A DNA stretch of 64,000 nucleotides, from IMG/VR virus record IMGVR_UViG_3300044951_001136. The stretch is one strand, 5' to 3'. The translations under genes and the position numbers were made by a program. Source of the stretch: a virus. Its lineage: Duplodnaviria; Heunggongvirae; Uroviricota; Caudoviricetes. The notes below the pieces were generated by a model, which made no database searches, was not told the origin of the DNA, and saw nothing but the letters and a program-made list of their open reading frames with translations. Positions 26,300 through 62,859 of the stretch are shown here, piece after piece; the first letter of the stretch is position 1; the number at the start of each line of letters is the position of its first letter.

Positions 26300-29004
26300 T
26301 GTCATATGTGGATGCAATACATTCCAGAGATGAAGATAAAATTTTTGTAGTAGAACGGGATAAGAATGGCAAGCGTCAATACAAAGAATATTCCACAAAC
26401 TATGTACTGTATTATCCTGATCGTAAGGGCAAGTATCGCAGTATATACGGTGACCCCGTAAATCGTTTCAGCACACGCAAACGACAAGAGTTTGAAAAAG
26501 AAAGACGCATCCATTCAGGTAAGAAATTATTTGAAAGTGATGTACCAGTGGTGTTTCGTTGCCTTAGTGAAAACTATCTTAAGGCAGATGTTCCCAATCT
26601 GCATACTTGCTTCTTTGACATTGAAACTGATTTTGATCCGATTAAGGGGTTTAGTCCAACAACCGATCCGTTCAATCCAGTAACCGCTATCAGTTGTTAT
26701 CTAGATTGGCTGGATCAATTGGTTACATTGGTCATTGCTCCCAAGCATATGAGTAAAGAAACAGCACAGGAAATTTGTAATGAGTTTGAAAACTGTTTAC
26801 TTTTTGCCAATGAGAAGGATATGTTTGATGTTTTCTTTCAACTCATTGAAGATGCTGATGTATTGACTGGTTGGAACTCAGAAGGATATGACATACCTTA
26901 CATGGTTAATCGGGTTACCCGAGTAATGAGTAAAGATGATACACGCAAGTTTTGTTTGATGGGTCAACTGCCTAAACCACGCACATATGAACGGTTTGGT
27001 AAAGAAGAACAAACATACGACTTAGTTGGTCGTATTCATTTGGACTACTTACAACTCTACAAGAAATACAACTATGAATCCCGTCACAGCTACAAGTTAG
27101 ATGCGATTGGTGAAATGGAAGTAGGAGAAAACAAAACTCAATACGAAGGTACGCTAGATCAATTGTATAACAAAGACTTTAAAAAGTTTATTGAATACAA
27201 CAGACAAGATACTATGTTGTTGGTGAAGATTCACAACAAACTTAAGTTTTTAGAACTTGCTAATCAATTGGCGCACGAGAACACTGTACTGCTTCCAACA
27301 GTCATGGGTTCAGTAGCAATGGTTGAGATGGCAATTTTTAATGAAGCCCACGAACGTGGATTGGTAGTGCCAGACAAAAAACGAAAGATTGAAAATGCAG
27401 AAGAAACAACGACAGCAGCAGGTGCCTTCGTTGCTACGCCGAAAAGAGGCATGCACGAATATGTCGGAGCAGTTGACATCAACTCGCTCTATCCCTCGGT
27501 TATTCGTGCCCTCAACATGGCAGGAGAAACCATCATCGGTCAAGTCCGACAGACATTAACTGACAAGTATATGGACGACAAAGGCAAGCAACTTGCTAGC
27601 GTTAAGAAACGATTCAAAGAGGGTGACGAGGACGTTACTGGTGCTATTCTTTGGGAAAACTTGTTTAGCGTATTAGAATATACTGCTATTATGAATCAAG
27701 AACGCGGAACAATACTGACATTAGACTACGAAGATGGCAGGTCAGTAGAGATGAGTGCAGCCGAGATTTGGAAGATGATTTTTGATAGCAATCGCCCATG
27801 GATGTTGTCAGCTAATGCTACTATCTTTACTTACGAAAAAGAGGGTGTAGTCCCTGGACTACTTACTCGCTGGTATAGTGAGCGTAAAGAAATGCAAGCT
27901 AAAGCTAAATCAGCTTATGGCACTGATCAATATGAATATTTTGATAAGCGTCAGCTTGTTCGTAAAATTTTGTTGAACTCAGCATATGGTGCGTTGTTGA
28001 ATGAGCATTGCAGATTCTATGATAAGCGCATCGGTCAAAGTGTTACCTTGAGTGGTCGTCAGATTGTTAAGCATATGATGAGTACAATCAATGAAACAAT
28101 CGCAGGTGAATATTCACATGATGGTCAAGCTATTGTGTATGGAGATACTGACTCATGTTATTTTACTGCATATCCTATTCTCAAAACACAAATAGCAAGT
28201 GGTGAACTAGAGTGGAACAAAGAAACTTGTATCGGCTTGTATGATAGTATAGCTGATCAAGCAAATGAATCATTCCCTGCATTCATGGAAAAGGCATTTC
28301 ATGCCCCAAGAAAGAACGGTGAAATCATCAAAGCTGGTCGTGAATTGATTGGTGATCGTGCTATCTTCATCACAAAGAAACGCTATGCCATCAATATCTT
28401 TGATAAAGAAGGCAAGCGTAAAGATATCAATGGTAAGAATGGTGATATCAAAGCGACGGGCCTTGACTTAAAGCGTGCCGATACCCCAAAGTATATACAA
28501 GAATTCTTAATGACGGTGCTTACAAAGGTCCTTGCTGGTGAGCAGCGGGACAAAGTTATTGAAATGGTTAAAGAATTCAAAAACAAGTTGTCTGAACAAG
28601 ATAGCTGGACAAAGGGATCACCAAAGAGTGTTAACAATCTAACTAAACATACTATTGAGTTTGAAAAGTCGGGCAAGTGTGGTGTTGGTCATGCCCGAGC
28701 AGCAATTAACTGGAACTATCTACGCAGAGTATACGGGGATAATTACAGTCAAAAGATTATAGATGGTATGAAGATTGTTGTATGTAAACTCAAAGATAAT
28801 GCATTGGGATTCACTAGTATTGCATATCCGGTTGATGAATTAAGATTACCACAATGGTTCAAAGACTTGCCATTTGATGATTTACTAATGGAATCAACAC
28901 TAGTAGATGAGAAGATAGACAACTTACTTGGTGTATTGGATTGGGATATCAGAAGTAATACTGATGTTAACTCAACATTTGATGATTTGTTCAGCTTCGG
29001 GTAA
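26299..29004 (+). CDS. family-B DNA polymerase (T4 gp43-like) with 3'-5' exonuclease domain
   Basis: FFDIETD exo I; DINSLYPSV motif A; NSAYGAL motif B region; VYGDTDSCYF motif C. Confidence 0.9.
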   Translation: MSYVDAIHSRDEDKIFVVERDKNGKRQYKEYSTNYVLYYPDRKGKYRSIYGDPVNRFSTRKRQEFEKERRIHSGKKLFESDVPVVFRCLSENYLKADVPNLHTCFFDIETDFDPIKGFSPTTDPFNPVTAISCYLDWLDQLVTLVIAPKHMSKETAQEICNEFENCLLFANEKDMFDVFFQLIEDADVLTGWNSEGYDIPYMVNRVTRVMSKDDTRKFCLMGQLPKPRTYERFGKEEQTYDLVGRIHLDYLQLYKKYNYESRHSYKLDAIGEMEVGENKTQYEGTLDQLYNKDFKKFIEYNRQDTMLLVKIHNKLKFLELANQLAHENTVLLPTVMGSVAMVEMAIFNEAHERGLVVPDKKRKIENAEETTTAAGAFVATPKRGMHEYVGAVDINSLYPSVIRALNMAGETIIGQVRQTLTDKYMDDKGKQLASVKKRFKEGDEDVTGAILWENLFSVLEYTAIMNQERGTILTLDYEDGRSVEMSAAEIWKMIFDSNRPWMLSANATIFTYEKEGVVPGLLTRWYSERKEMQAKAKSAYGTDQYEYFDKRQLVRKILLNSAYGALLNEHCRFYDKRIGQSVTLSGRQIVKHMMSTINETIAGEYSHDGQAIVYGDTDSCYFTAYPILKTQIASGELEWNKETCIGLYDSIADQANESFPAFMEKAFHAPRKNGEIIKAGRELIGDRAIFITKKRYAINIFDKEGKRKDINGKNGDIKATGLDLKRADTPKYIQEFLMTVLTKVLAGEQRDKVIEMVKEFKNKLSEQDSWTKGSPKSVNNLTKHTIEFEKSGKCGVGHARAAINWNYLRRVYGDNYSQKIIDGMKIVVCKLKDNALGFTSIAYPVDELRLPQWFKDLPFDDLLMESTLVDEKIDNLLGVLDWDIRSNTDVNSTFDDLFSFG

Positions 29005-29069: not shown

Positions 29070-29636
29070 ATGATACAACAAATTGAATTTACTAGAAATA
29101 ATAGTTTCCCAATAAAATTATTTAAAAAAGAAAAAGCATTAAGTTTTGATATTTGCCATTCACTACGAGAGTTTGCATTAAGCAGTGAATCAGGCTGGCA
29201 TCGTTCTGTTAATCGTACTCCCAAACATTGGGACATTGAATGCCATACTTGTAGAGTACCTTTAAATTGGAATGACAATAAATTACACGAAATATTGTCT
29301 CCTATTTGGGAAGAAGCGTTTAACTATTATGGTTTTCATGTAACTCATGTAGAACAATATGAGATAAAAAGATATAGCGAAGGAGATTACGTCACAGAAC
29401 ATGTTGACCAATATTATGGCACAGCAGGTACTGAACGAAAATTAACAATGCTATTGCAATTAACTGATGGATCAGAATATCAGGGAGGCAATCTTCATGT
29501 AATTAGGAATGCGGTAAGTAAAACAATAGGATCATTGACCATTTTACCTGCATTCTATTTACATGAAGTAAAACCAATAACAGCAGGTGAACGATGGTCA
29601 CTGAATTGTTGGGCATGGGGCCCATATTGGAAGTGA
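29070..29636 (+). CDS. 2OG-Fe(II) oxygenase (prolyl-4-hydroxylase-like)
   Basis: TEHVDQ (HxD), LHEVKPI (distal His), RWSL (RxS) in the expected order. Confidence 0.75.
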   Translation: MIQQIEFTRNNSFPIKLFKKEKALSFDICHSLREFALSSESGWHRSVNRTPKHWDIECHTCRVPLNWNDNKLHEILSPIWEEAFNYYGFHVTHVEQYEIKRYSEGDYVTEHVDQYYGTAGTERKLTMLLQLTDGSEYQGGNLHVIRNAVSKTIGSLTILPAFYLHEVKPITAGERWSLNCWAWGPYWK

Positions 29637-29695
29637 ACATATTAAATGCATATTTTATTAAAAACGTGTACAATTTAACATACAAAGGAAACAAA

Positions 29696-30427
29696 ATGAA
29701 AGATTTTTTAAAAGACTTAATTGATCATACTCTTGGTCTTGGTACAATTGAACTGATTAAAGTTACAGGTACTGATACTGAAACAGTAATCAATGCGGTA
29801 GCAGAAAACAAAAGCGTAATTATTAGTGGTACATTCAAAGATCCGATTGCCGACTTTATTGGTGTATTCGGAATGCCCAACTTGAATAAACTCAAGACAA
29901 TTATTGGGTTTGATGAATATGACGGAACATCTAAAATTAATGTTGTTCGTACTCAACGTGACGGGGTAGATGTACCTTCTACTATTCACTTTGAAACAAA
30001 GAGTGGTGACTTTGTTAATGATTATCGTCTTATGCTTAAAAGTGTAGTTGACGAGAAAGTTAAAAGTGTATCCTTTAAGGGTGCTAAGTGGAATGTTGAA
30101 TTTGAACCTACAATTGCTGGTATTCAACGACTTAAGAAGCAATCACAAGCAAATAGCGAAGAAGATCATTTTGTATTCAAAACTGATGGAAGTGATTTGA
30201 AAGTATACTTTGGTGACGCATCAACACATAGCGGTAACTTTGTATTCAATACTCCAGTTACCGGAACACTAGCTGGTACACATAAGTGGCCCGTTAAAGA
30301 ATTCTTGAGTATCATGGATTTAGTCGGGGACAAGACAGTTAAGATTAGTGAACAAGGTGCAACGGAAATCACAGTTGATAGTGGTATAGCAATTTATGTT
30401 TACTTGTTGCCAGCTAATAAGAAATGA
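29696..30427 (+). CDS. hypothetical protein; size, position and composition compatible with a gp45-like sliding clamp
   Basis: Start moved to ATG 29696 (ORF-track frame 29594 overlaps the previous gene); about 244 aa; weak similarity only. Confidence 0.4.
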   Translation: MKDFLKDLIDHTLGLGTIELIKVTGTDTETVINAVAENKSVIISGTFKDPIADFIGVFGMPNLNKLKTIIGFDEYDGTSKINVVRTQRDGVDVPSTIHFETKSGDFVNDYRLMLKSVVDEKVKSVSFKGAKWNVEFEPTIAGIQRLKKQSQANSEEDHFVFKTDGSDLKVYFGDASTHSGNFVFNTPVTGTLAGTHKWPVKEFLSIMDLVGDKTVKISEQGATEITVDSGIAIYVYLLPANKK

Positions 30428-31982
30428 TCAAGAGTATCAATTGAAACAAGATAATCTATCAGCGAAGCATAACCCAGATTGGGCATTGTTCTTACCCGCA
30501 GTCAGTAGTTTTTATATTGCTGGCTTGGGTAAGCAACGTAAGGGTGAAAACTATTTTGACCAAGCACGTATCCCTGCCAGTTTCAAAGGTGATGTAGAGA
30601 AACTAAACTTTCTTAACAGCAAAGAAGGTCTTTACTACTACAAGTGGGGACTATACAGTGCTGGTCACGCTAATTTGGATACTACCAAAGATGATTCAAG
30701 TGAATCAATCATCCGTGAACGTGAAGAAGGTACATTCATATTGGGCGATAGTGGTGGCTTTCAGATTTTAAAAGGTCAATGGCCAGCTGATTGGAAGGAT
30801 CCCAACTGTCCACGGGCTATGGTAAAGCGTAAAGCAGTATTGAATTGGATGGACACATACATGGATTATGGTATGTGTTTAGATATTCCAAGTCAATCAT
30901 TGACTACATTTGGAATGAAAGATAAGAACGGCAACAGTTTACACGGTATCAGTACTATTGAAGAAGCCATTGCAGCTACACATATTAATAACGAATACTT
31001 TATAAATAATCGCTCAGGGAAATGCAAGTTATTAAATGTATTACAGGGTCGCAATCATACTCAATCAGATGATTGGTATGAAGAAATGAAAAAGTATTGC
31101 GATACTAACATCTTTCCAGATAATCATTTCAATGGCTGGGCATTCGGTGGACAGAACAAGATTGATATACATTTAATGCTACGTAGATTAGTTGGTATTA
31201 TCCATGATGGATTGTTAGTTGAAGGTAAGCATGATTTGATTCATTGCTTGGGAACAAGTATCTTGGAATATGCTGTGTTGTTTACTGATATACAGAAGGC
31301 AATACGAAAGTATCATAATCCAAAACTACAAATTACATTTGACTGTGCCAGCCCATTCTTTAGTGCTGCTAAAGGATTGGCATATTTCAATACTAATATC
31401 CAGCATAATAAAAAATGGTCTTACAGCATGGAAAAGACTGCTGAAAAGAAAAGTTATGCCAATGATAATCGCAAGTATCGTGATGCTGTATTAGCTGATG
31501 GTATACATAAATTATTTACAGATAGTCCAGTAACTGATGCATTAGTTATGAAAGATTTATGTTATCGTGGTGTAGGTTTCTTGGGACAGCACGGTAAAGA
31601 AACTAAAACAAGTTGGGATACATTAAGTTATACACTGTTACAAAGTCACAATGTTTGGATGCATATGAATGCAGTTCAAGAGGCTAATCGTCAGTATGAA
31701 CAAGGTGTAGTTCCAAAGATGTTAGTACATAAGTTTGAAGGTGATAGGTTCTTTACTCAATTAGTTGATGAAATCTTTGCAAAGAAAACTAAACAAGAAT
31801 CACTAGATTTGATTGATTTTCATAATAGTTATTGGAAACAATTCCAATCAGGTAGTCAGGGTATTAGTGGTAAGAAAACTGTTAATGCTATGAGTATGTT
31901 TGATGAATTGTTTTCAGTAGATGAAGAACCGTTAGAAGAACTAGAAGATAGTGATGATGCTATCGCATTAGTTTTGGAGTAA
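30396..31982 (+). CDS. tRNA-guanine-transglycosylase-like protein, candidate DpdA (7-deazaguanine DNA transglycosylase)
   Basis: FILGDSGGFQIL matches the TGT catalytic-Asp motif (DSGGFQ); TIM-barrel-sized; clustered with FolE/QueD/QueE. Confidence 0.7.
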   Translation: MFTCCQLIRNDQEYQLKQDNLSAKHNPDWALFLPAVSSFYIAGLGKQRKGENYFDQARIPASFKGDVEKLNFLNSKEGLYYYKWGLYSAGHANLDTTKDDSSESIIREREEGTFILGDSGGFQILKGQWPADWKDPNCPRAMVKRKAVLNWMDTYMDYGMCLDIPSQSLTTFGMKDKNGNSLHGISTIEEAIAATHINNEYFINNRSGKCKLLNVLQGRNHTQSDDWYEEMKKYCDTNIFPDNHFNGWAFGGQNKIDIHLMLRRLVGIIHDGLLVEGKHDLIHCLGTSILEYAVLFTDIQKAIRKYHNPKLQITFDCASPFFSAAKGLAYFNTNIQHNKKWSYSMEKTAEKKSYANDNRKYRDAVLADGIHKLFTDSPVTDALVMKDLCYRGVGFLGQHGKETKTSWDTLSYTLLQSHNVWMHMNAVQEANRQYEQGVVPKMLVHKFEGDRFFTQLVDEIFAKKTKQESLDLIDFHNSYWKQFQSGSQGISGKKTVNAMSMFDELFSVDEEPLEELEDSDDAIALVLE

Positions 31983-32150
31983 TATGTATAGCCAACAAAT
32001 TGCAATAGAAAAAAAGGTTGATAACTTTGACAAAGATTCCCGTAAAGCTATGCAATCACAACATAGTATGATATACTATAACATACAGCGACTTAATAAG
32101 TTGCAGTGGGCAAGTATACGTGATACATATGATTACAAAAGGGATAGATA

Positions 32151-32603
32151 ATGGAACAGATGATACAAGCACAAGCAGAAAAGCGGCAGCGCATTAAAGA
32201 AAAAGCAATTCGTACAATTTTTGTACGTTTTCAGAAAGAGGGTATTCATTGTTACCCGGCAGCAGCAACAGACCCAGCACTTGCTACAGGTGATGAGTAT
32301 GATGTTAGCTTTTTAGGAACTTTGCATCGTCACATCTTTCATTTTGAAGTGACTATGGAAGTATTTCACAACGACCGTGATTTGGAATTTATTCAAGTAA
32401 AACGCTGGTTAGAAAATCTCTATGCCGGTAATATTCTTGAATTGAACCATAAAAGTTGTGAAATGATTAGTGATGATCTTTATGAGGTTATTGCAACTCG
32501 GTATCCAAATCGTAATATCACTATCACAGTCTCAGAGGACAATGAGAATGGTGCTACGATTTTTTATAGTAAAACTCACCCGTATCAATCACTCGCTATT
32601 TAA
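32151..32603 (+). CDS. hypothetical protein, possible divergent T-fold (QueD-like) paralog
   Basis: IHCYP...LHRHIFHFEVTMEV loosely resembles PTPS/QueD CxxxHGHSFxVxxEI. Confidence 0.35.
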   Translation: MEQMIQAQAEKRQRIKEKAIRTIFVRFQKEGIHCYPAAATDPALATGDEYDVSFLGTLHRHIFHFEVTMEVFHNDRDLEFIQVKRWLENLYAGNILELNHKSCEMISDDLYEVIATRYPNRNITITVSEDNENGATIFYSKTHPYQSLAI

Positions 32604-32615
32604 AAGGAATATAAC

Positions 32616-32822
32616 ATGGCAAAACAAACTTTTCAATCAAACCCACGTGTTACTCAAATCTTTGAGGACCTAGAGAAATATCTAACATTCTGTGTGGATT
32701 TTGGTTATAAGTACAACGAAGCAGAACTCTACGACCAACGTAGTTATGTGTATCGTCAGTATACAAAACTTGCATCTGGTAAAGTTGCAAGAGATCAGTG
32801 GCAGGAAACGGTTCGTCCATGA
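32616..32822 (+). CDS. small hypothetical protein (68 aa); overlapping +1-frame ORF 32692..32910 also present
   Basis: ORF track; see frameshift note. Confidence 0.3.
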   Translation: MAKQTFQSNPRVTQIFEDLEKYLTFCVDFGYKYNEAELYDQRSYVYRQYTKLASGKVARDQWQETVRP

Positions 32823-32915
32823 GGTATTGGGTGAACTAGCTAAAGCGGTTAAGGATCGCCGTAACGAAATTACCGCTGAAAAAGCAGCAAGAAAAGAAGC
32901 TAAGGCTTAATCTGT

Positions 32916-32923
32916 GATAAATA
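32916..32923 (+). promoter_or_regulatory. GATAAATA late-like motif upstream of folE
   Basis: Read in sequence. Confidence 0.35.
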
Positions 32924-32988
32924 AAATGTAAGATACACAACGGTAGTTTACATTTCAAAACAAAAACCATCACAAAGGAAGGTTATCT

Positions 32989-33663
32989 ATGGCGTATAAT
33001 AAGCAAAAAACAGACCCAGAGTTGGGTCAACGAGTACACGAACATTTAGTTAAGATGGGAGTTGAAACTCCTACTATCCCAAACAACTACGACCGTAAAG
33101 AAAAGATAGACCATATTGAAGCGCACTTTGCACATATTATGCGTATCTTAGGTCTTGACTTATCAGACGATAGTTTAATGGATACCCCAAAGCGTGTAGC
33201 AAAAATGTATGTCAACGAAATCTTTTGGGGTCTTGATTACGAAGCATTCCCTAAATGTACCGCAGTTGATAACAAAATGAAGTACAATGAAATGGTATGT
33301 GAACGCAATATTAATGTACAAAGTAATTGTGAACATCATTTAGTGATTATCTCCGGTCTAGCAACTGTCGCATATGTGCCTAAACAAAAGGTACTTGGAT
33401 TGAGTAAAATCAATCGTATCGTAGAATACTTTAGCAAGCGACCACAAATCCAAGAACGATTAACAGAACAAGTCTTTCACGCATTACAATACATACTTGA
33501 AACAGAAGATGTTGCGGTTATGGTTGACGCACAACATTACTGTGTGAAAAGCAGGGGAGTTGAGGATACGGGTAGTAGTACTGTAACAAGTAGATTAGGT
33601 GGTGGGTTTAAAACTGATCCAGCAGCTAGAGCAGAATTCTATCAATTAGCAAGGGGACGATAA
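32989..33663 (+). CDS. folE: GTP cyclohydrolase I
   Basis: NCEHHLVIISG ... LGLSKINRIVEYFSKRPQIQERLT ... DAQHYCVKSRG conserved FolE core. Confidence 0.9.
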   Translation: MAYNKQKTDPELGQRVHEHLVKMGVETPTIPNNYDRKEKIDHIEAHFAHIMRILGLDLSDDSLMDTPKRVAKMYVNEIFWGLDYEAFPKCTAVDNKMKYNEMVCERNINVQSNCEHHLVIISGLATVAYVPKQKVLGLSKINRIVEYFSKRPQIQERLTEQVFHALQYILETEDVAVMVDAQHYCVKSRGVEDTGSSTVTSRLGGGFKTDPAARAEFYQLARGR

Positions 33664-33845
33664 TGAACTGGATCAATATAGACAATTTGATGATGGGAAT
33701 TATAATTGGATATATACTAAATCCACTGCTAGCAGCATTTATATCAATATTTACTAATGCTTGGAAAAGTACAAACTCGGTATGTACCGGAAATTGTAAT
33801 CAAGGTCGTAACTGTACATGCAGAGGAAAAAATGGGATTTCGTAA
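33663..33845 (+). CDS. small membrane protein with Cys-rich tail (60 aa)
   Basis: TAATG-coupled to folE; one TM helix. Confidence 0.3.
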   Translation: MNWINIDNLMMGIIIGYILNPLLAAFISIFTNAWKSTNSVCTGNCNQGRNCTCRGKNGIS

Positions 33846-34068
33846 ACCAATGGACTATACCGGTGTTCATCATCAAATTTACACAGCTGGAATAGAATTG
33901 CATAGCAACTACAACGATGGTTTCAATCAGTTTGAAATCAAAAAAGACTTACATCGTATCAAGTGGTTGCTTGATGAGATTATGGCTGATTCACCTACAT
34001 TCGCCGGCGAAGAAGAATTTCTTGATGAACATTCTAAAATAAAGATGTGGAGAACATTAAAAAAATGA
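33832..34068 (+). CDS. hypothetical protein (78 aa)
   Basis: Start moved to ATG 33832 after GAGGAAAA SD. Confidence 0.35.
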   Translation: MGFRKPMDYTGVHHQIYTAGIELHSNYNDGFNQFEIKKDLHRIKWLLDEIMADSPTFAGEEEFLDEHSKIKMWRTLKK

Positions 34069-34526
34069 TATTCAACAGAATCAAAGAACTAAAACAACAA
34101 GGGCTTAAGATAGGTATCGTATTCTCCCAATTTGATATTCTACATGCCGGGCATATTGCAATGCTTAGTGAAGCTAAAAATCATTGCGACTATCTTATTG
34201 CTGGTTTGCAGAATAACGCACAATGGGATAGAGCGGAGAAGAATGCTCCTATTCAAAGTATTGTTGAGAGGCAGATTAGTTTAAGTGCTGTCCGTTTTGT
34301 AGATGAAATTGTTGTTTACAATACTGAGAAGGACTTGGAAGATATTCTACTCATACTACCTATTGATGTTCGTATCTTGGGTGTAGAATACAAAGATAAG
34401 GATTTTACGGGTAGCGATATTTGTCAAACTCGCAGAATTGAAATAGTATTTAATGAGCGTGATCACAGTTTCAGTAGTTCAAGTCTACGTAAACGAGTTG
34501 CGGACGCACATCAAAAAGATAAGTAA
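34047..34526 (+). CDS. cytidylyltransferase-fold nucleotidyltransferase, TagD / RfaE-domain-II-like
   Basis: GIVFSQFDILHAGHIAML (HxGH), DYLIAGL, C-terminal DHSFSSSSLRKRV (ISxTxIR-like) parallel B. subtilis TagD; alternative start ATG 34065. Confidence 0.7.
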   Translation: MENIKKMIFNRIKELKQQGLKIGIVFSQFDILHAGHIAMLSEAKNHCDYLIAGLQNNAQWDRAEKNAPIQSIVERQISLSAVRFVDEIVVYNTEKDLEDILLILPIDVRILGVEYKDKDFTGSDICQTRRIEIVFNERDHSFSSSSLRKRVADAHQKDK

Positions 34527-34527
34527 A

Positions 34528-35031
34528 ATGACACAACTACCAGTAACATATAAGTGGACTTCCACAAAAGAGTATCACGATGCGTTCCCCTGTGCTTATA
34601 GACAGTACAAAGCCGACAGCCATTGCCAGTTTTTACATGGTTATAGCTTCTCAATGAAGTTCTATTTTGGAACAAACGACTTAGATGCGCGCCGATGGGC
34701 TGCGGATTATGGCGGCTTGAAAGAACTAAAGCAAACATTAGAGAGTCAATTTGACCATACAACATTAGTGGCTGAATCAGATCCACATCTAGACTGGTAT
34801 GTGCAGGCGGAACATCGTGGCATTATGAAATTAACTATTCTCCCCAACTTAGGATGTGAAAGTCTTGCAGATATGCTATACAAGTATGTTAACGGGGTTT
34901 ACATTCCTGATATGTGGGGTGAAAGTGAAGCAAAGCGTTTGTGGTGCTATCGGGTTGAAGTACGTGAAACACAGGCAAATATGGCTTTTAGAGAGGGGCA
35001 TCGTGAATGGAATGAGGATTTGTTTGAATGA
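34528..35031 (+). CDS. queD: 6-carboxy-5,6,7,8-tetrahydropterin synthase (QueD / PTPS family)
   Basis: SHCQFLHGYSFSM (Cx3HGx) and EHRG T-fold motifs; start moved to ATG 34528 after upstream TAA. Confidence 0.75.
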   Translation: MTQLPVTYKWTSTKEYHDAFPCAYRQYKADSHCQFLHGYSFSMKFYFGTNDLDARRWAADYGGLKELKQTLESQFDHTTLVAESDPHLDWYVQAEHRGIMKLTILPNLGCESLADMLYKYVNGVYIPDMWGESEAKRLWCYRVEVRETQANMAFREGHREWNEDLFE

Positions 35032-35246
35032 GTTCTGATTCAGACTTTAAAATGTTTAAATGGGTACCTGATGGTACTTATGATTACAGTGACTTTCTTA
35101 CACGATATGTTATAGTCAATGGTAATCCAACTGTTGTTATCAATCGTGCGTGGGTAAATAGTGGAGGACCAGAAGGAGTTTCAGCCGAATTGAAACAAGC
35201 ATGGGGTTCATTTCCTGATATGCCTCTAAAGCCATTAAAGAAATAA
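35028..35246 (+). CDS. hypothetical protein (72 aa)
   Basis: ATGA-coupled ORF. Confidence 0.4.
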   Translation: MSSDSDFKMFKWVPDGTYDYSDFLTRYVIVNGNPTVVINRAWVNSGGPEGVSAELKQAWGSFPDMPLKPLKK

Positions 35247-35401
35247 TGAAGATATTTTGGAGAATATGGGCAAAATCCCTAGGTGAGAAAGCGGGCACAA
35301 CCGATACAGAATCTGACCGTATTGCGTGTATTAGAACTTGTATTGTGTTATGCTATGTCATTACAAACTTGTTTATCATAGCAGGTGCAATTAGTTAGAT
35401 T
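35246..35401 (+). CDS. small hydrophobic protein (51 aa)
   Basis: TAATG-coupled ORF below track cutoff; C-terminal TM helix. Confidence 0.25.
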
Positions 35402-35413
35402 AAGGATCAAAAA

Positions 35414-36262
35414 ATGAGCAAATTAAAAATTAGTGAACTATTTTATAGTATTCAAGGAGAAGGCCGATATATCGGAGTACCAAGTATTTTCCTACGAACA
35501 TTTGGTTGCAACTTCAAATGTGCAGGGTTTGGTATGCCAAGGGGCGAAATAAGTAGTGAAGTAGAAGATATCGCAGCCCGTGTGCATTACTACACGGCTT
35601 ACACCCAACTACCATTAGTTAGTACAGGTTGCGATAGTTATGCAAGTTGGGATCCTCGTTTCAAAGATTTCAGTCCAATACGTACTACTGATAGTATTGT
35701 TGAAAGTATTATGACAATGCTTCCGCACAAGCGTTGGATGGAAGAACATCTTGTTATTACAGGGGGTGAACCTTTGCTAGGTTGGCAACGCAGTTATATT
35801 GATTTACTTTCACATGAAAACATGACGGGTTTACAAGAACTAACATTTGAAACAAATGGCACTCAACCGTTGCAACATCAATTGAAAACCTACTTGCATC
35901 AATGGGCCATCAATCGTTCTAGAGGTGCAATAACATTTAGTGTTAGTCCTAAACTTGGTATCAGTGGCGAGAAGTGGGAAGAAGCAATATGTCCTGAAAT
36001 TATTGATGAATATAGTCAAGTAGGTCATACATATCTGAAGTTTGTTGTGGCCAATAGACAAGATGTAGAAGAAGCACAAGAAGCAGTTAATCAATATCGT
36101 ACTCACGGATTTAGGGGTAATGCTTACTTGATGCCATGTGGCGGAGTTGAAAGTGTATATAACATGAATGCCAAAACAGTTGCACTTGAAGCAATGCGGT
36201 TAGGCTGGCGTTATAGTGATAGACTTCAGGTGCCACTCTTTAAAAACGCATGGAATACCTAA
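35414..36262 (+). CDS. queE: 7-carboxy-7-deazaguanine synthase (QueE, radical SAM) with atypical Cys motif
   Basis: ISELFYSIQGEGRYIGVPSIFLRTFGCNFKC parallels E. coli QueE MFQTLQGEG...GCPVGCAWC; third Cys is replaced (CAGF). Confidence 0.75.
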   Translation: MSKLKISELFYSIQGEGRYIGVPSIFLRTFGCNFKCAGFGMPRGEISSEVEDIAARVHYYTAYTQLPLVSTGCDSYASWDPRFKDFSPIRTTDSIVESIMTMLPHKRWMEEHLVITGGEPLLGWQRSYIDLLSHENMTGLQELTFETNGTQPLQHQLKTYLHQWAINRSRGAITFSVSPKLGISGEKWEEAICPEIIDEYSQVGHTYLKFVVANRQDVEEAQEAVNQYRTHGFRGNAYLMPCGGVESVYNMNAKTVALEAMRLGWRYSDRLQVPLFKNAWNT

Positions 36263-36362
36263 TGGATTTCTTTTGGGGATTTTTACTTGGGTATATAGTA
36301 GGGGTTTTCTATATGTGCTATCGTTCAAATGAAAATGACAGAGACTATACTGGAATTAAATA

Positions 36363-36587
36363 GTGTACAGTCCTATACCTAATGACTACTTCATGGACCA
36401 TGTTGTGGGCAGACAATTGAAGGTTGCACTTATGCCTAGACATTGCCATATAACAAATCGTCTACTATGGTTAGAGTACGCATATTGTATTACCGCAATG
36501 TATACAGGTCCCGGTGAGCCTATATTTGAATATCGCTGGTATGATAAAAATGAATATTTAATAGCAAGATTAAAGGATTTAATATGA
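36363..36587 (+). CDS. hypothetical protein (GTG start in track; alternative ATG 36393)
   Basis: ORF. Confidence 0.3.
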   Translation: MYSPIPNDYFMDHVVGRQLKVALMPRHCHITNRLLWLEYAYCITAMYTGPGEPIFEYRWYDKNEYLIARLKDLI

Positions 36588-36778
36588 ATTTAGAAATGCG
36601 CTGGCTTATAACAGCTGGTTGGGACGGCCCTGAAAAAATACTACAATATCGCTTTGAAAGAGAAACACCGGATTACTGTATACTAAATCCAAAAACAGGT
36701 GAAATTACAAAACAAAATGAGTTAACTGATTGGATTACTGTTCCAACGGTAGATGAGGTTAAGAATGCGAACATATAA
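36584..36778 (+). CDS. hypothetical protein (64 aa)
   Basis: ATGA-coupled ORF. Confidence 0.35.
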   Translation: MNLEMRWLITAGWDGPEKILQYRFERETPDYCILNPKTGEITKQNELTDWITVPTVDEVKNANI

Positions 36779-38096
36779 CAAACGAATTGGATTTCTAATT
36801 AGCTACCAGTATCTTATTCCGCATGGTGGAATAGGACAGTTTGCTAAGAGTTTTTGTGAATTGATGGATATTCATAATATTAAAGTTGATATTATCACAG
36901 ATAAAAAACCACAAGATAGTGAGTTTGTTAAATCTCTCAAAGCTAATATTGTTTGTCCAAATGAATCATTAAAGTACACTGACCACAGTAATATCTTTAT
37001 GTTCGGGGATACATTTTGTTATGAACGCATGGCTAACTTTCGCAATAGTATCATTGAAGCATTAGAGCATAATATATACGATGCATTAGTATGCAATACA
37101 TATGAAACTGTACAAGTTGCAAGTACAATGGGTCTAGAGGATGTTATACAGATAATTGCTTATACTCATTTAGAAAGTCAAATCTTCAGAGATACCAGTA
37201 ATCCTTTTTTGCATAACACAAATGAGTTGATGCGTCAACAGCTTACTACTACTGGTATATTTATTGGTACACAGAGTAAATTCAATCAATTAGAGATTGA
37301 TGATTCATATCATTTACCAATTCCAATCACCGAACAAGGTTTGTTAGAAGAACATCACCATCCGCGTGATGGTGTATTGTTTGTTGGCAGATGGGAAGAA
37401 GGTAAGAACCCGGAACTTTACTTGGAACTAATTGAACAAACTAAATTACCTGCACGAGTTATGACTAATACAAACGGTGCTAAGAAGTTTGAAGAACGAT
37501 TTAAGAAGATGGGAATAACTGACTATAAGATTGGTGTTAGTATCATTGGGCAAACGAAAGTAGACTTCATCACCAGTTGCAGAGTTGCTTTTAACCCAAG
37601 TAATGTAGAGAGTTATGGTATGGCTTTTTATGAGCAACATATTCAGTTGCCTACACTAGTATTAGAGAATCAACGCTGGACTAATAATTTCAACGAGAAT
37701 TTTTTCTATAAATGTACTAAGAAAAATATGGCTGAACGAGCAAAACAGTTGTATGATTCGTTTGAACACGCCGCAACTTGGTACAACTTAGATTCATTAA
37801 CACATGCACGACAAGTGGAAGCCACTGTATTTCACAAGTGGAATACCTGCTTCAATGAATTTGAAGGCAAGAAGTCTAATAGCAACACTGCAAAGATATG
37901 CGAAGAACCCACAATTAAATTGAGTGATTTTAATACACAGTTAGGTCGTAGCTTGTTATGCATTGATGATATCAAATCAGTATTGACAAACAAGCATAAG
38001 TTTCGTATACTATACACGGACGATGATACTTACTTGAGTAAGGACCCGTCGTTTGAACCAGAGGAAGAAGGCGAGAGTCTTTTTAGTTTTGAATGA
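36765..38096 (+). CDS. GT-B-fold glycosyltransferase (GT4-like)
   Basis: N-terminal HGGIGQF; VLFVGRWEEGKNPELYLELI GT4-type motif; start set to ATG 36765 after GAGGT. Confidence 0.55.
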   Translation: MRTYNKRIGFLISYQYLIPHGGIGQFAKSFCELMDIHNIKVDIITDKKPQDSEFVKSLKANIVCPNESLKYTDHSNIFMFGDTFCYERMANFRNSIIEALEHNIYDALVCNTYETVQVASTMGLEDVIQIIAYTHLESQIFRDTSNPFLHNTNELMRQQLTTTGIFIGTQSKFNQLEIDDSYHLPIPITEQGLLEEHHHPRDGVLFVGRWEEGKNPELYLELIEQTKLPARVMTNTNGAKKFEERFKKMGITDYKIGVSIIGQTKVDFITSCRVAFNPSNVESYGMAFYEQHIQLPTLVLENQRWTNNFNENFFYKCTKKNMAERAKQLYDSFEHAATWYNLDSLTHARQVEATVFHKWNTCFNEFEGKKSNSNTAKICEEPTIKLSDFNTQLGRSLLCIDDIKSVLTNKHKFRILYTDDDTYLSKDPSFEPEEEGESLFSFE

Positions 38097-38926
38097 AAAA
38101 AATATTAATTACAGGTTGTTCGGGTTACATTGGTAGTCATCTAGTTAAGATGCTAGCAAATGACTACGAGGTACACGGCCTAGATATCAATGTTCCGCAA
38201 GCTGACGGATTACAAGAATTCTATCAAGTTGATATTCGTAGACTATTTGAATTACCAACCGAGTTTGATGCAACGATTCACTTGGCAGCACTAGTCAATG
38301 TGGGTGAAAGTGAGCGTATCCCACTAAGTTATTACATCACTAATTTGAATGGTACAATGAATGTTATCAATAAGGTACGGACAAAGAACTTTATATTTGC
38401 CAGCACTGGAGCAGCAGTGGGATGTGCTAGTGCGTATGGCATTAGTAAACGAGCAGCAGAGGATGTGGTGCGTGAGTATTTTACTCAGCATAATCCTAAA
38501 CCTTATACAATATTTAGATTCTACAATGTTATTGGTAGTGATGGGTTTGATCCAACCAATCCTGATGGATTAATGTATAATCTAATGAAGGCTAAGGAAA
38601 GAGGCGAGTTTACCATCTTTGGCAATGATTATGATACACGAGATGGAACCTGCATTCGTGATTATGTTCATGTTAACGAGATATGTGACGCATTATGTAC
38701 TGCTATTGAGAAGCCAAGTAATCAAATAGAATGTTTAGGGCATGGGGTAGGTTATACTGTTGCCGAGATAGTTAATAAGTTCAAAGAAGTAAATAATATA
38801 CCTAATATTAATTTGCTTACAAAGATAGGCCCAAGAAGAAAGGGTGACTTAGCAATATCTGTATTAGATAATGTGTCACCCTATATGAAAGAGGTATACT
38901 CTTTGGAAGATTTGCTTAAGATTTAA
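38093..38926 (+). CDS. NAD-dependent epimerase/dehydratase (extended SDR, GalE-like but shorter)
   Basis: ILITGCSGYIGSHL Rossmann; YGISKRAAE YxxxK catalytic motif. Confidence 0.75.
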   Translation: MKKILITGCSGYIGSHLVKMLANDYEVHGLDINVPQADGLQEFYQVDIRRLFELPTEFDATIHLAALVNVGESERIPLSYYITNLNGTMNVINKVRTKNFIFASTGAAVGCASAYGISKRAAEDVVREYFTQHNPKPYTIFRFYNVIGSDGFDPTNPDGLMYNLMKAKERGEFTIFGNDYDTRDGTCIRDYVHVNEICDALCTAIEKPSNQIECLGHGVGYTVAEIVNKFKEVNNIPNINLLTKIGPRRKGDLAISVLDNVSPYMKEVYSLEDLLKI

Positions 38927-39812
38927 TTTTAACCCATTTATCAACTAGCATATTTTTAAGTGCTACTGTATCTGGTAACTTATTCTTACGCATAAAATCA
39001 TTTAATTTAACAGCAGTTGGATAATCAGTAGAATTAGGTTTACGAGCATTGCTCATATCTACACCAAGATTACTATCGGAATCTGGACGTCTACTGCCAT
39101 AGTAGACTAATTCATATCGCAACTTTTCAGCACGGCTAGTTAAATCTGATTTTTTGTTTTTATATATTAGTTCTACCCACGGTTCAAGGTACATTGTCGG
39201 CGGACGACTTGGTGTGTAACCTTTTGGTTGTTGTCCTTTAAGCAATTTAGCAGCGTCACCGGGAGTAACTGCTTTGCGGGTATCTTGTAAACGCCATGCC
39301 TTCTCATCTGTGTATAAGTAAGCTGATATACCTTGCTTCTTGGCAGTGATTAAAATTGTTCTAACTTCGGGGCTACGATTTTCGCTCTGTTCTTTGAGCA
39401 AAACATGAACAGCAATTACTCCGTTAATTGGAATTTCAGGTGTCTTTGAAAATACTCTATCTTCGCTTTCACTGGTACGAGTACCGTTACTATGTTGCCA
39501 AGACCTTTCCCAATAATCAATTGCTTTTGTTTTGTAATGCCGATTTAACCAGTTCCCATCAATTACAAACATAGCGGCGCTGCTACCAGTATATCGGTGA
39601 TAGTCTCCCACTTTGCTGCGAGTTGTGCTTAGAAAGTAAAGATATCCCGGCGGTGCATATTGTTCTTCACTAGAGTTACCTGTGACACTACTTAATTGAA
39701 AAACTCCAGTAGTTAGAATTTTTGCAGCAGCAGATACACCGGCATAATGGTAGACAATAGCAGTAGCTGCTTCATCTAGTATTGCTTCTGCGATAAATTC
39801 AGTTGCTCTCAT
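38916..39812 (-). CDS. putative packaged virion protein (298 aa)
   Basis: N-term MRATEFIAEA matches MRAIEFINE (22370) and MRFNEIISEA (41464-) class. Confidence 0.5.
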   Translation of the reverse strand: MRATEFIAEAILDEAATAIVYHYAGVSAAAKILTTGVFQLSSVTGNSSEEQYAPPGYLYFLSTTRSKVGDYHRYTGSSAAMFVIDGNWLNRHYKTKAIDYWERSWQHSNGTRTSESEDRVFSKTPEIPINGVIAVHVLLKEQSENRSPEVRTILITAKKQGISAYLYTDEKAWRLQDTRKAVTPGDAAKLLKGQQPKGYTPSRPPTMYLEPWVELIYKNKKSDLTSRAEKLRYELVYYGSRRPDSDSNLGVDMSNARKPNSTDYPTAVKLNDFMRKNKLPDTVALKNMLVDKWVKIKS

Positions 39813-60418: not shown

Positions 60419-61501
60419 TTGAAATCAACAATATGGATATTCTCGCTGGAGCCTATTGAGACTCGCTATACAGCACAGTGGCACAGTCATGTGCCCGCTC
60501 TACTCAAGAACAAGTTAGGCGACCGTTTTAATGTGGTTCAAGTAGATGGTGTTCAGAAGAACAGCCAACTGACTCCGGGTGCGTTCTTAAACTTCTCCGA
60601 TACTAACTATTGGAAGAGTGCTCAAATGTGTGCGTTCTTAGAACAGCACAATCAAGGCAAGACTGGCCCCGACGATCACTTTATCTTTACAGATGCGTGG
60701 AACCCCACAGTGATCCAACTGAAATATATGTCAGACCTATTAGGCTTCAACTGGACTATACACGGATTATGGCATGCTGGCAGTTATGACCCTCAAGACT
60801 TCTTGGGACGAATTATCGGTGATGCTAAATGGGTCAGACATGCAGAATGTAGTTTCTTTGAAGCTATTAATCATAATTACTTTGCAACAGACTTTCATAT
60901 ACAATTATGGAGTGATTGCTTTTTGCTTCCGGAAGCAAAGAAATCATTGATAATGTCTAAGAAAATTGTAAAGACTGGCTGGCCAATGGAGTATCTTAAA
61001 GATACGCTAGTGACATATAGCAATTTAGAAAAAGAAAACATCATTTTGTTTCCACATCGTATTGCTCCTGAAAAGCAACTTGATATCTTTAGGGACTTGG
61101 CAGAAGCATTACCAGAATATAAATTTGTTATTGCACAGGATCAACACCTATCTAAACATGAATATCATACATTGTTAGGTAAAAGTAAAATTGTGTTTAG
61201 TGCAAACTTACAAGAAACATTAGGTATCAGTTGCTTTGAAGCATTATGTGTTAATGCATTTCCATTAGTTCCTAATAGACTAAGTTATACAGAAATGTAT
61301 CCAAGTGCATTTAAATATGATTCTAGATGGTCAGATAGCTTTAATAGTTACTTACAATTTAAAGATAGGTTAGTTGAGCATATACGTACTATAATGACAG
61401 AGATGGATGGTTCATTGCATTTTGAGAAAATAATTCAAACCCGAGAACTTATGCATCATAACTTTTTTAGTGCAACAAACTTACTGGAAAACATTACATG
61501 A
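60419..61501 (+). CDS. putative GT-B-fold glycosyltransferase (TTG start)
   Basis: FPHRIAPEKQLDIF ... GISCFEALCVNAFPLVP resembles the GT1/GT4 C-terminal domain; AGGAGA SD. Confidence 0.45.
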   Translation: MKSTIWIFSLEPIETRYTAQWHSHVPALLKNKLGDRFNVVQVDGVQKNSQLTPGAFLNFSDTNYWKSAQMCAFLEQHNQGKTGPDDHFIFTDAWNPTVIQLKYMSDLLGFNWTIHGLWHAGSYDPQDFLGRIIGDAKWVRHAECSFFEAINHNYFATDFHIQLWSDCFLLPEAKKSLIMSKKIVKTGWPMEYLKDTLVTYSNLEKENIILFPHRIAPEKQLDIFRDLAEALPEYKFVIAQDQHLSKHEYHTLLGKSKIVFSANLQETLGISCFEALCVNAFPLVPNRLSYTEMYPSAFKYDSRWSDSFNSYLQFKDRLVEHIRTIMTEMDGSLHFEKIIQTRELMHHNFFSATNLLENIT

Positions 61502-62759: not shown

Positions 62760-62859
62760 TCTAAATAGTATAATTTTTTGCGTATTGCTGATACACTAAA
62801 TATATGTGAGTGCCGATAGTCGGGCTCACACAGTCATATTTGCTTATAGGAGAAATAAC

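Follow-up and report, generated by a model that had tools for sequence, protein, structure and literature searches.

A DpdL-type 7-deazaguanine DNA-modification module and a linked putative sugar line in a giant freshwater phage

The analyzed stretch of phage DNA (64,000 nt, hereafter the window) carries on its + strand a gene block, between positions 29070 and 38926, that had been read from the letters alone as a 7-deazaguanine DNA-modification locus interleaved with sugar genes. All open reading frames (ORFs) named in that sequence-only reading are found in the ORF list of the window where it had placed them. The gene identities and the DpdA-superfamily fold mark the block as a jumbo-phage module for DNA modification with 7-deazaguanine, of the DpdL type. 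The module identity and the linkage of sugar genes with dpdA were thus sustained, whereas the interpretation of the second T-fold, of the oxygenase and of the glycerol-phosphate chemistry had to be revised.

The block opens with a 2OG-Fe(II) oxygenase gene (29070..29636, +; PF13640, E 1e-12). In two close relatives, L003 and L004, the segment 28993-29682 is swapped for 85 nt, the flanks being ~95% identical on both sides, and homologues of the oxygenase (36-44% identity) have been found in few related loci only. The gene is probably a strain-specific insertion outside the pathway, and it has no part in the system proposed here. Since this indel is absent from 95%-identical relatives, the hydroxylated deazaguanine suggested earlier has no comparative support. 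The adjacent ORF (29696..30427, +; 243 aa, phrog_12062), unmentioned in the sequence-only reading, encodes a sliding-clamp homologue with 32% identity to a gene of phage Phosso annotated as sliding clamp beta and 31% to EST35_0314 of the Pseudomonas phage PA5oct. It sets a replication context directly upstream of the DpdA-like gene, in a conserved order.

The FolE, QueD-type T-fold and QueE radical-SAM assignments made earlier were upheld by PF01227, PF01242, phrog_2389 and phrog_2076. FolE, the GTP cyclohydrolase I (32989..33663, +; PF01227 3.6e-62), scores 324.8 bits with NF006824, above the cut-off of 202. The QueD-like 6-carboxytetrahydropterin synthase (34528..35031, +; PF01242 8e-15, phrog_2389 1e-35) belongs to a CxxxHGY variant common to the window, Cellulophaga phage phiST, Acidovorax phage ACP17, RHph_I1_18 and Synechococcus phage BUCT-ZZ01. 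The QueE-like radical-SAM 7-carboxy-7-deazaguanine synthase (35414..36262, +; phrog_2076 5e-50) gives partial matches, all under cut-off, to five NCBIfam QueE models and is 44% identical to QueE of BUCT-ZZ01. Together the three enzymes would convert GTP to 7-carboxy-7-deazaguanine (CDG). No QueC, QueF or Gat-QueC was detected among the ~50 larger window ORFs scanned, in agreement with the sequence-only reading for the latter two; because the window is without QueC, preQ0 would be out of the reach of the pathway. The PP-loop gene upstream of the block (25384-25992) was rejected as QueC, being TilS-like (PF01171 5e-36).

The ORF 32151..32603 (+; phrog_17812), previously regarded as a possible second T-fold paralog, was identified by motif and homologues as DpdL, a QueD-like T-fold protein proposed to be the decarboxylase of CDG (PMC10516641). 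Its LxxxHRHxF signature is present as L-GTL-HRH-I-F and fits the description in that paper. The window protein is 51-53% identical to DpdL of ACP17 (tblastn 51%, 7e-35; blastp 53%), 32% to CGPG_00067 of phiST (tblastn 2e-5; blastp 2e-11), 57% to a PA5oct protein and 66% to a Phosso protein, and would decarboxylate CDG to 7-deazaguanine. The DNA of phiST, a DpdL-bearing phage, carries plain 2'-deoxy-7-deazaguanosine (dDG) (PMC10516641). With the second T-fold identified as DpdL, the expected base is therefore 7-deazaguanine, a known modification, instead of the dPreQ0, dADG or dPreQ1 options considered before. The dDG pathway of phiST comprises FolE, QueD, QueE, DpdL and DpdA3 (Cui/Hutinet et al. 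2023, PMC10516641). The window shares with it the biosynthetic set, the missing QueC, the homologous DpdL with the same signature and the CxxxHGY QueD; phiST differs in its short DpdA3 (259 aa), its MazG-like and kinase-like genes and the lack of the glycosyltransferase GT2, whereas the window adds GT2, a second glycosyltransferase (GT447), a nucleotidyltransferase and an SDR protein. It counts against the interpretation favored below that dpdA plus dpdL of ACP17 or of phiST, expressed in E. coli, yielded no dDG (PMC10516641).

The ORF encoding the TGT-like protein opens with ATG 30396 and ends at 31982 (+), with LGDSGGFQI at residues 116-124; the true start is likely TTG 30441, and the resulting product of 513 aa (30441..31982) matches its homologues in length. 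Its candidacy as DpdA was supported by the fold, which is that of a DpdA-superfamily enzyme. The protein does not match PF01702 of Pfam, has a helical C-terminal extension of ~130 residues, shares 13% identity with bacterial DpdA (the DNA preQ0 insertase, PDB 7ui4) and tRNA-guanine transglycosylases, and shows no detectable pairwise similarity to phiST DpdA3. No invariant Cys/His cluster for the TGT Zn site is seen in its family, a point against the favored interpretation. Three DpdA types were distinguished: A, the ACP17-type (ACP17, Xanthomonas phage X1 and BUCT-ZZ01; ~420 aa, DSGGLQ), tied to the window enzyme only at profile level; B, the window type; and C, the phiST-type DpdA3, whose loci carry an RH_073/Ah_681-type DpdA with a tie to phiST DpdA3 that is transitive only, via four loci matching both. 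This very divergent DpdA-fold transglycosylase between clamp and DpdL is a candidate for the exchange of guanine in DNA for the deazapurine, its predicted substrate being 7-deazaguanine or a derivative and not preQ0.

Comparison of loci links one glycosyltransferase to the pathway more closely than any other, and its gene lies outside the coordinates of the sequence-only reading. This GT4-like protein, GT2 (60419..61501, +), is 45% identical to PA5oct and Phosso genes and 38% to an ACP17 gene, all located between or beside dpdA and dpdL. In IMG/VR, GT2 adjoins DpdL in all 36 viral DpdL loci with type A or B DpdA and is found in none of the nine with type C; DpdL lies ~0.6 kb upstream in 62 of 64 GT2 loci. 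The linkage spans 24 DpdL clusters and 12 GT2 clusters, with direct adjacency in ~100 loci of many lineages and a conserved gene order, DpdA-GT2-DpdL or DpdA-DpdL-GT2. Among GenBank phages GT2 adjoins dpdA or dpdL in the annotated regions of PA5oct, ACP17, Phosso, X1 and BUCT-ZZ01 and, by match coordinates, lies ~2-3 kb from dpdL in BUDD and BCSR5. We infer that the GT2 family is an obligate partner of type A/B DpdL modules. R-x4-K and EX7E-type motifs are kept in both of its subtypes, and the family profile matches the GT4 enzyme WlaC/PglA in PDB (E 2e-4).

The strict occurrence of GT2 with DpdA types A and B, never type C, and the kept gene order would also suit an auxiliary or scaffold partner for base insertion (compare DpdB with bacterial DpdA, and QTRT2 with QTRT1), leaving the product unglycosylated. 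The ACP17 genes that gave no product in E. coli were supplied without the intervening GT gene, as this role would predict, but the phiST pair failed likewise although phiST has no GT (PMC10516641). Moreover, the GT4 donor-binding motifs (R-x4-K and the acidic EX7E region) persist across both GT2 subtypes, and a dedicated sugar-nucleotide line of phosphomannomutase (PMM), nucleotidyltransferase and SDR clusters with GT2 in several clades, so that we consider a scaffold role improbable. In the window GT2 stands among chaperone and membrane genes and not in the deazaguanine cluster. At a deletion junction within the cluster (32824..32826), blastn revealed 1,286 extra nt in L003 and L004 encoding a BUCT-ZZ01-type GT2 of 398 aa (in L003, ORF 3700-4896 with 65% identity to UTS52032 of BUCT-ZZ01). 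Having lost the in-cluster ZZ01-type gene, the window still carries the other GT2 subtype at a distant site, which would fit a need for the function to be retained.

GT447 (36753..38096, +) is a 447-aa GT4-like glycosyltransferase with a weak PF00534 match (E 0.0024); its sequence shows a GGIGQF loop and, as an EX7E motif, ESYGMAFYE. It is conserved across the clade of the window, and its best phage match, UTS52035 of BUCT-ZZ01 (37%, 9e-85), lies between FolE and DpdA in the deazaguanine cluster of this cyanophage, which holds both GT families. The HxGH nucleotidyltransferase of the cytidylyltransferase-like superfamily (34047..34526, +) has an HAGH motif and scores 36.8 bits with PF01467 (cut-off 21), remaining under the equivalog cut-offs of RfaE domain II (69 vs 181.5 bits) and TagD (54 vs 165). 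Homologues of 51-66% identity have been found in DpdL clusters of other lineages (L104, L120, L121, L145, L165), and the gene lies upstream of the TGT-like gene in 29 of 57 GT2 loci. In L217 it is flanked by PMM and SDR, and in a separate clade the three genes directly precede the clamp and DpdA-like genes; this neighborhood points to a sugar-1-phosphate substrate. The earlier description as TagD-like and linked to glycerol-phosphate is not supported, and we infer that the enzyme makes an NDP-sugar. Its family is present in 64 GenBank phage records, with no DpdL-match phage among the 40 records and genera listed, and also in DpdA3-type loci without GT2 (L120, L121), which weighs against a sugar-decorated base. 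At a second junction (34524..34535) relatives have ~800 extra nt encoding an APS-kinase-like domain fused to an HxGH nucleotidyltransferase, a gene found in 21 related loci and not in the window. The strain has thereby lost two sugar-related genes kept by its nearest relatives, again unfavorable to such decoration.

The short GalE-like SDR epimerase/dehydratase (38093..38926, +; PF01370 4e-32) has GxxGxxG and YxxxK motifs and reaches 164 bits with TIGR01179, below the cut-off of 262. Homologues recur in DpdL/GT2 clusters of other lineages (e.g. L101, L114, L115, L124, L161; 31 of 57 GT2 loci), and in PA5oct a 172-aa SDR-like gene adjoins DpdL. The confinement of GT447 and the epimerase to some clades argues against the favored interpretation, as does the auxiliary-gene-rich character of such regions, seen in L121, whose cluster is interleaved with peptide deformylase and 2OG oxygenase genes. 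The co-variation of sugar genes with dpdA is supported by the comparison of loci: genes for GT, nucleotidyltransferase and epimerase occur repeatedly within the deazaguanine clusters of phages from unrelated lineages.

From this co-variation GT2, GT447, the nucleotidyltransferase and the SDR most likely form a line of sugar-nucleotide supply and transfer, running from sugar-1-phosphate through NDP-sugar and modified NDP-sugar to transfer. By analogy with T4 hmC glucosylation it would further decorate the deazapurine, probably once in DNA. We give an even chance to this reading, in which the base of a DpdL-type module is further decorated by a linked sugar line; if true, the linkage in many unrelated phages points to an undescribed sugar-decorated DNA base. 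In T4 (glucosyl-hmC) and RB69-like phages (arabinosyl-hmC) a GT-B-type transferase, sometimes with sugar-nucleotide enzymes encoded by the phage, adds the sugar to a base that has been modified before, and mannosyl- and galactosyl-queuosine of eukaryotic tRNA are examples of a sugar borne by a 7-deazaguanine derivative. Those sugars, however, sit on a hydroxyl (the hydroxymethyl of hmC, the cyclopentenediol of Q), and none is predicted on the base of this phage: 7-deazaguanine offers only C7/C8-H, N2 and O6, and CDG a carboxylate. All DNA glycosylations known to us use a hydroxyl or amine side chain, which 7-deazaguanine lacks, and this counts against decoration.

The want of an obvious acceptor in dDG favors a simpler alternative, rather unlikely though to be taken seriously, in which the DNA contains only plain dDG (or dCDG) and the merely syntenic sugar genes serve another target, for example proteins of the virion or host, the polysaccharide of the host envelope or a different DNA base. 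TagD-like genes are widespread among phages without detected DpdL, auxiliary genes are interleaved in such regions, the oxygenase proved a simple indel, and the window GT2 lies outside the cluster. Plain dDG in the DpdL-bearing phiST (PMC10516641) agrees with this, but phiST belongs to the GT-less class, so its chemistry is uninformative for the GT-bearing one. Mere synteny also fits poorly with the adjacency of GT2 and DpdL across so many lineages and with the tracking of DpdA type (36/36 vs 0/9). In none of the loci examined are the sugar genes accompanied by genes for LPS, capsule or tail fibres, which speaks as well against the host LPS remodelling offered earlier as an alternative.

The same module has been found in the cultured phages PA5oct, ACP17, X1 and BUCT-ZZ01. 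The last three share DpdL (40-53% identity), GT2, FolE, QueD and QueE with the window, and BUCT-ZZ01 the in-cluster GT447 homologue as well; they differ in having type A DpdA and in being T4-like phages, not jumbo phages of the window's clade. Phosphoribosyltransferase (PRTase) and HIT protein genes in many related modules suggest nucleotide-level chemistry, and the transglycosylase could then act on tRNA or the nucleotide pool instead of DNA, in translation remodelling or towards a deazapurine nucleotide or metabolite. We regard this as very improbable: neither tRNA nor PRTase genes were found in the window, the DpdA-like gene lies within a replication module near polymerase and clamp, and all phages with a deazaguanine pathway and a DpdA-family gene whose DNA was analyzed in one study had the modification in DNA (PMC10516641). 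Also in favor of action on DNA, that of PA5oct, a Pseudomonas jumbo phage (Wroclawvirus), withstands digestion by several restriction enzymes, and its authors attribute the pattern to modified G (PMC12191111). Its region EST35_0311-0322 encodes DNA polymerase, clamp homologue, DpdA-like protein (32% identity to that of the window), GT2, DpdL, SDR-like protein and QueE in the order of the window. PA5oct differs in possessing a PRTase, in the absence of FolE, TagD-like and GT447 genes from the 19 kb examined and in a QueD encoded elsewhere in the genome. All genes of its module except QueE are annotated as hypothetical.

On the + strand, directly after the family-B DNA polymerase gene (26299-29004), lies a block at 29070-38926 in which every gene listed by the sequence-only reading is present. 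It encodes a 2OG-Fe(II) oxygenase (29070-29636; PF13640, 1e-12), a sliding-clamp homologue (29696-30427), a TGT-like protein with the LGDSGGFQI motif (30396-31982, an ORF of 528 aa, for which TTG at 30441 is the most likely start, matching the 513-aa homologues), DpdL (32151-32603, 150 aa), FolE (32989-33663; PF01227, 3.6e-62, exceeding the NCBIfam equivalog cut-off), an HxGH nucleotidyltransferase (34047-34526; PF01467), a QueD-like protein (34528-35031; PF01242, 8e-15), a QueE-like radical-SAM protein (35414-36262; phrog_2076, 5e-50), a GT4-like glycosyltransferase of 447 aa designated GT447 (36753-38096; weak PF00534) and an SDR epimerase of 277 aa (38093-38926; PF01370, 4e-32). A gene for GT2, the GT4-like family accompanying DpdL, is located outside this block on the same strand (60419-61501). 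No match to the block was found among GenBank phages by megablast; the window belongs to a jumbo phage without a close GenBank relative, whose IMG/VR relatives number in the hundreds, on contigs as long as 360 kb.

The gene at 32151-32603, formerly read as a possible second T-fold paralog, encodes DpdL, as judged by its LGTLHRHIF motif and by homology. DpdL has been defined by Cui, Hutinet and co-authors as a QueD paralogue in which LxxxHRHxF replaces CxxxHGH; it occurs in phages that encode a DpdA along with FolE, QueD and QueE and lack QueC, and has been proposed to decarboxylate 7-carboxy-7-deazaguanine (CDG), leading to the 2'-deoxy-7-deazaguanosine (dDG) of phiST, although dpdA and dpdL of ACP17 and of phiST yielded no dDG in E. 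coli (PMC10516641). The window protein is a QueD-like T-fold with this signature, shares 51-53% identity with DpdL of ACP17 (tblastn 7e-35; blastp 1.7e-43) and 32% with CGPG_00067 of phiST (tblastn 2e-5; blastp 2e-11), and the proteins of phiST, ACP17 and seven other sequences share the H, H, E and SCE residues without exception. Its context within the 64-kb window is also that described for DpdL: FolE, QueD, QueE and a DpdA-like protein are encoded, and a scan of the larger ORFs detected no QueC, QueF or Gat-QueC. A PP-loop gene just upstream of the DNA polymerase gene (25384-25992) was considered as a hidden QueC and rejected because it is TilS-like; this ATPase of 202 aa matches PF01171 (5e-36), has the N-terminal domain only and is kept in relatives at 53-100% identity. 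The QueD of the window shows the CxxxHGY variant common to phiST and ACP17 QueD. The identity of DpdL together with this shared variant argues that the core pathway is of the known DpdL/dDG kind, with 7-deazaguanine predicted as the base rather than preQ0, ADG or preQ1. CxxxHGY instead of the canonical CxxxHGH has been seen in all examined QueD proteins of DpdL-type phages, phiST included (window 34528-35031; L084:5442-5936 and L083:5802-6278 among the compared loci), so that one presumed Zn-ligand histidine is replaced.

The TGT-like protein, the DpdA candidate, gave no match in Pfam, PHROG, NCBIfam or, by phmmer, PDB sequences, and neither a 62-sequence profile of its family nor a profile of the ACP17-type DpdA (type A) found anything in the PDB. 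It lacks a PF01702 match, fits none of the described DpdA1-4 subfamilies by Pfam, NCBIfam, PHROG or BLAST and has no pairwise BLAST similarity to the DpdA or glycosyltransferase of ACP17 or to DpdA3 of phiST. The sole link to the DpdA proteins of ACP17, X1 and BUCT-ZZ01 was provided by hhalign (97.4% probability, E 1e-11), with the motifs DSGGFQ, LDxP, HxLG and SxD aligned to those of the ACP17-type DpdA. The family comprises 840 representatives at 50% identity and has nine invariant columns, among them D118 (DSGGFQ), D163, H283, G286 and D316; D118 (GDSGGFQ), D163 and D316 (FDC) do not vary across 66 sequences sharing 26-92% identity with the query. Both the Asp of DSGGFQ and the second Asp on a later strand, typical of the catalytic pair of the TGT family, are present, and by motif resemblance rather than superposition we infer that they correspond to Asp102 and Asp280 of TGT.

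AlphaFold2 run on a shallow alignment (82-92% identity) gave a useless model (pLDDT 50), whereas the diverse 66-sequence alignment gave pLDDT 90.6 and a (beta/alpha)8 barrel of the TGT type. This model scored 20.5 in comparison with the DNA preQ0 insertase DpdA (7ui4), 20.3 with QTRT2, 19.0 with bacterial TGT, 14.6 with Cap10, 14.2 with archaeosine TGT and 13.3 or lower with everything else. A Foldseek search of the PDB, with archaeosine TGT ranking first, agreed with these values, and a search of a viral library returned phage TGT/DpdA proteins, the ones from nt-1, Motura and phiST among them. The structural Zn site CxCxxC...H is a defining feature of TGTs; in the family alignment no Cys is invariant or nearly so, and of Zn-type residues only H283 and the frequent C389/H418 are conserved. 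Since there is neither an invariant Zn-site Cys cluster nor a PF01702 match, the protein has been designated type B and no described DpdA subfamily assigned to it. The model supports its interpretation as a divergent DpdA-fold protein, and type B is a new, very divergent subfamily of DpdA.

Orthologues of type B, both annotated as hypothetical, are encoded by PA5oct (32% identity) and Phosso (28%). The Phosso gene is located ~170 kb from a group in which a 177-aa 'glycosylase' (L086:9382-9915) directly precedes DpdL and GT2. PA5oct DNA resists several restriction enzymes, a pattern attributed by the authors to modified G, and the phage is targeted by nucleases sensing hypermodified DNA (PMC12191111). 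For the predicted base exchange in DNA by type B the hint is indirect: PA5oct has an orthologue and its DNA is reported to be G-modified (PMC12191111). Alternatively, the target of the module might be tRNA or the nucleotide pool. A phosphoribosyltransferase (PRTase) is frequent in DpdL modules (60 of 80 GT2 loci and most loci with the phiST-type DpdA3) and often accompanied by a HIT-family protein (PA5oct, L001:12925-13359; BUCT-ZZ01, L088:4084-4545; also L121:7907-8401, L217:7831-8388 and 8369-8719). Neither gene is found in the window; elsewhere the pair hints at a nucleotide-level deazapurine step beyond the published pathway schemes.

The main result concerns the sugar genes, for which a comparison with dpdA had been posed beforehand: they track the pathway. 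GT2 is placed between or beside dpdA and dpdL in PA5oct, ACP17, Phosso, X1 and BUCT-ZZ01, and the GT2 match is ~2-3 kb away from that of DpdL in BUDD and BCSR5; the GT2 of the window shares 45% identity with its PA5oct and Phosso counterparts. In a DpdL-centred set of 78 IMG/VR loci (24 DpdL clusters at 75% identity) GT2 was found at most ~2.5 kb from DpdL in all 36 type A or type B DpdA loci with enough flank, and in none of the nine loci where a DpdA of the RH_073/Ah_681 type, whose tie to DpdA3 of phiST is only a transitive one made by four loci matching both, comes after DpdL. Conversely, in a GT2-centred set of 80 loci (12 clusters at 70% identity) DpdL lies ~0.6 kb upstream of GT2 in 62 of the 64 loci with enough upstream sequence, and type B DpdA, PRTase, FolE and QueE are usually encoded as well. 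In a large clade (GT2 ~50% identical) the genes run from phosphomannomutase (PMM) through nucleotidyltransferase, SDR, clamp and DpdA-like to an unidentified gene, DpdL and GT2, and then over two more unidentified genes to PRTase, HIT, FolE and QueE, a layout that reads as a full predicted line from sugar-6-P through NDP-sugar to transfer, surrounding the genes of the deazaguanine pathway. The sugar genes of this PMM-bearing clade are not accompanied by LPS, capsule or tail genes. The connection proposed earlier between sugar genes and dpdA is real at the comparative level, and not previously described, with the proviso that it involves a glycosyltransferase outside the block (60419-61501) and does not involve the 2OG oxygenase. 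The comparative data define a distinct and widespread module of type A/B DpdA, DpdL and GT2, with nucleotidyltransferase, SDR, PMM and PRTase as frequent extras.

One rival explanation casts GT2 as a non-catalytic protein partnering DpdA of types A and B. For PF00534, the C-terminal domain of the GT1 group and GT4, the two glycosyltransferases GT2 and GT447 reach 22.8 and 17.8 bits, below the gathering score of 26.4; the GT2 family profile matches the GT4 enzyme WlaC/PglA (E 2e-4), and the donor motifs of GT4-type (GT-B, retaining) enzymes (R/K-x4-K, EX7E) are recognizable by eye as HRIAPEK and QETLGISCFE in GT2 and as ESYGMAFYE in GT447. A sequence search with GT447 drew no match from the PDB, and because BLAST detected no similarity to the PA5oct and ACP17 glycosyltransferases it is regarded as a family separate from GT2. 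Within the deazaguanine cluster of BUCT-ZZ01, between FolE and DpdA, lies the gene of its best phage relative (37%, 9e-85); both GT447 and the SDR are confined to some clades.

The loci L003 and L004, the nearest relatives with ~95% DNA identity, differ from the window by three indels. At 32825 (junction 32824-32826) the window lacks 1,286 nt that in the relatives encode a BUCT-ZZ01-type GT2 of 398 aa (L003:3700-4896), and at 34527 (junction 34524-34535) ~800 nt encoding a fusion protein of 264 aa that joins an APS-kinase-like domain to an HxGH nucleotidyltransferase (L003:6714-7508). The window's only GT2 is of another subtype and occupies a position matched by no other locus, so it looks as though one GT2 has been displaced by another, as would be expected if GT2 function were needed. 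The third indel is the gain of the 2OG oxygenase. The idea that this enzyme hydroxylates the base to create a sugar acceptor was dropped because of its strain-specific character, and the oxygenase is probably not a member of the pathway; peptide deformylase and 2OG oxygenase genes are auxiliary genes interleaved in such regions. Both deletions are clean, and at the second junction the leader of the lost fusion gene is joined in frame to QueD (ORF 34453-35031).

The TagD-like assignment of the nucleotidyltransferase held at the superfamily level (PF01467 and TIGR00125 above cut-offs, HAGH motif present), but the protein does not reach the TagD equivalog TIGR01518 (53.8 vs cut-off 165.4) or that of RfaE domain II, TIGR02199 (69.3 vs 181.5). 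Similarly, the epimerase belongs to the SDR superfamily (PF01370, GxxGxxG and YxxxK) and stays below the GalE equivalog TIGR01179 (164.2 vs 262.3; 277 aa vs 332 model positions). Each of the two genes is found again in DpdL or GT2 clusters from several lineages; the nucleotidyltransferase is also present in two DpdA3-type loci without GT2 (L120, L121) and in 64 GenBank phage records, with no DpdL-matching phage among the records listed. A tie through this gene to the hypermodification of phage S-B43 was discarded, the gene being absent from that paper's account. Its closest GenBank homologues (62% identity; Va1, L090 6989-7453) are in the Va1/phiKT1024 Vibrio phages; the surrounding Va1 genes are annotated by similarity to phi-Grn1, and no recognisable deazaguanine gene adjoins it in Va1. 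This group of phages presumably has deazaguanine-modified DNA. phi-ST2, a close relative of phi-Grn1, is said in the literature to carry a DpdM homologue.

In the pathway that we propose, GTP would be converted by FolE to H2NTP, by QueD to CPH4 and by QueE to CDG, steps established by homology; DpdL, whose homology is established here and whose reaction is that proposed in the literature, would yield 7-deazaguanine, and type B DpdA, judging from fold, motifs and context, would exchange G in DNA for it. Co-variation suggests that the nucleotidyltransferase and SDR make a modified NDP-sugar and that GT2, together with GT447 in the clade of the window, moves the sugar onto the deazapurine, most likely once this is already in DNA. 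The original interpretation is supported in part: the core deazaguanine module and, by comparison, the sugar-gene link have been retained, while the oxygenase has dropped out. Under another rival explanation the phage would make plain dDG and the glycosyltransferases would work on another target; 7-deazaguanine has, to our knowledge, no conventional sugar acceptor, and this stands beside the constant company of GT2 and DpdL in type A/B loci.

With rather less than even confidence we suggest that a large, environmentally abundant class of phages swaps guanine for a sugar-bearing 7-deazaguanine derivative by means of the new DpdA subfamily, DpdL and a dedicated GT4-like DNA glycosyltransferase with a phage-made sugar-nucleotide supply. 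Just as tentatively, freshwater and marine jumbo phages, PA5oct, ACP17, X1 and cyanophage BUCT-ZZ01 may all belong to it. We know of eight 7-deazaguanine DNA modifications, none of them sugar-bearing, and of DNA glycosylations on hydroxymethyl-pyrimidines exclusively; no report of glycosylated deazaguanine in DNA was found in the literature. If true, a glycosylated purine would be on record for DNA for the first time, perhaps as a C-glycoside of the pyrrole ring. It would suggest which modification protects PA5oct from restriction enzymes whose sites contain G and makes it a target of END nucleases, and would bear on the behaviour of such genomes in sequencing, restriction and CRISPR defence. 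Omission of the intervening glycosyltransferase gene is a possible reason for the failed ACP17 dpdA-dpdL reconstitution, yet that of GT-less phiST failed too. Because PA5oct, ACP17, X1, BUCT-ZZ01 and Phosso are cultured, the question is directly testable by nucleoside mass spectrometry.

Two other regions of the window deserve mention. The epimerase gene is followed by three convergent genes on the - strand (38916-42654), where the GC skew flips; one product combines a GP88 domain (PF17338) with a weak LysM match and another a TAT-like signal with DUF6321. Chaperone and proteostasis genes, encoding DnaJ-like, ClpB-like, ClpX-like, Hsp20 and SPFH/Band 7 proteins, are located at 8030-11103, 61557-63312 and 57404-58198.
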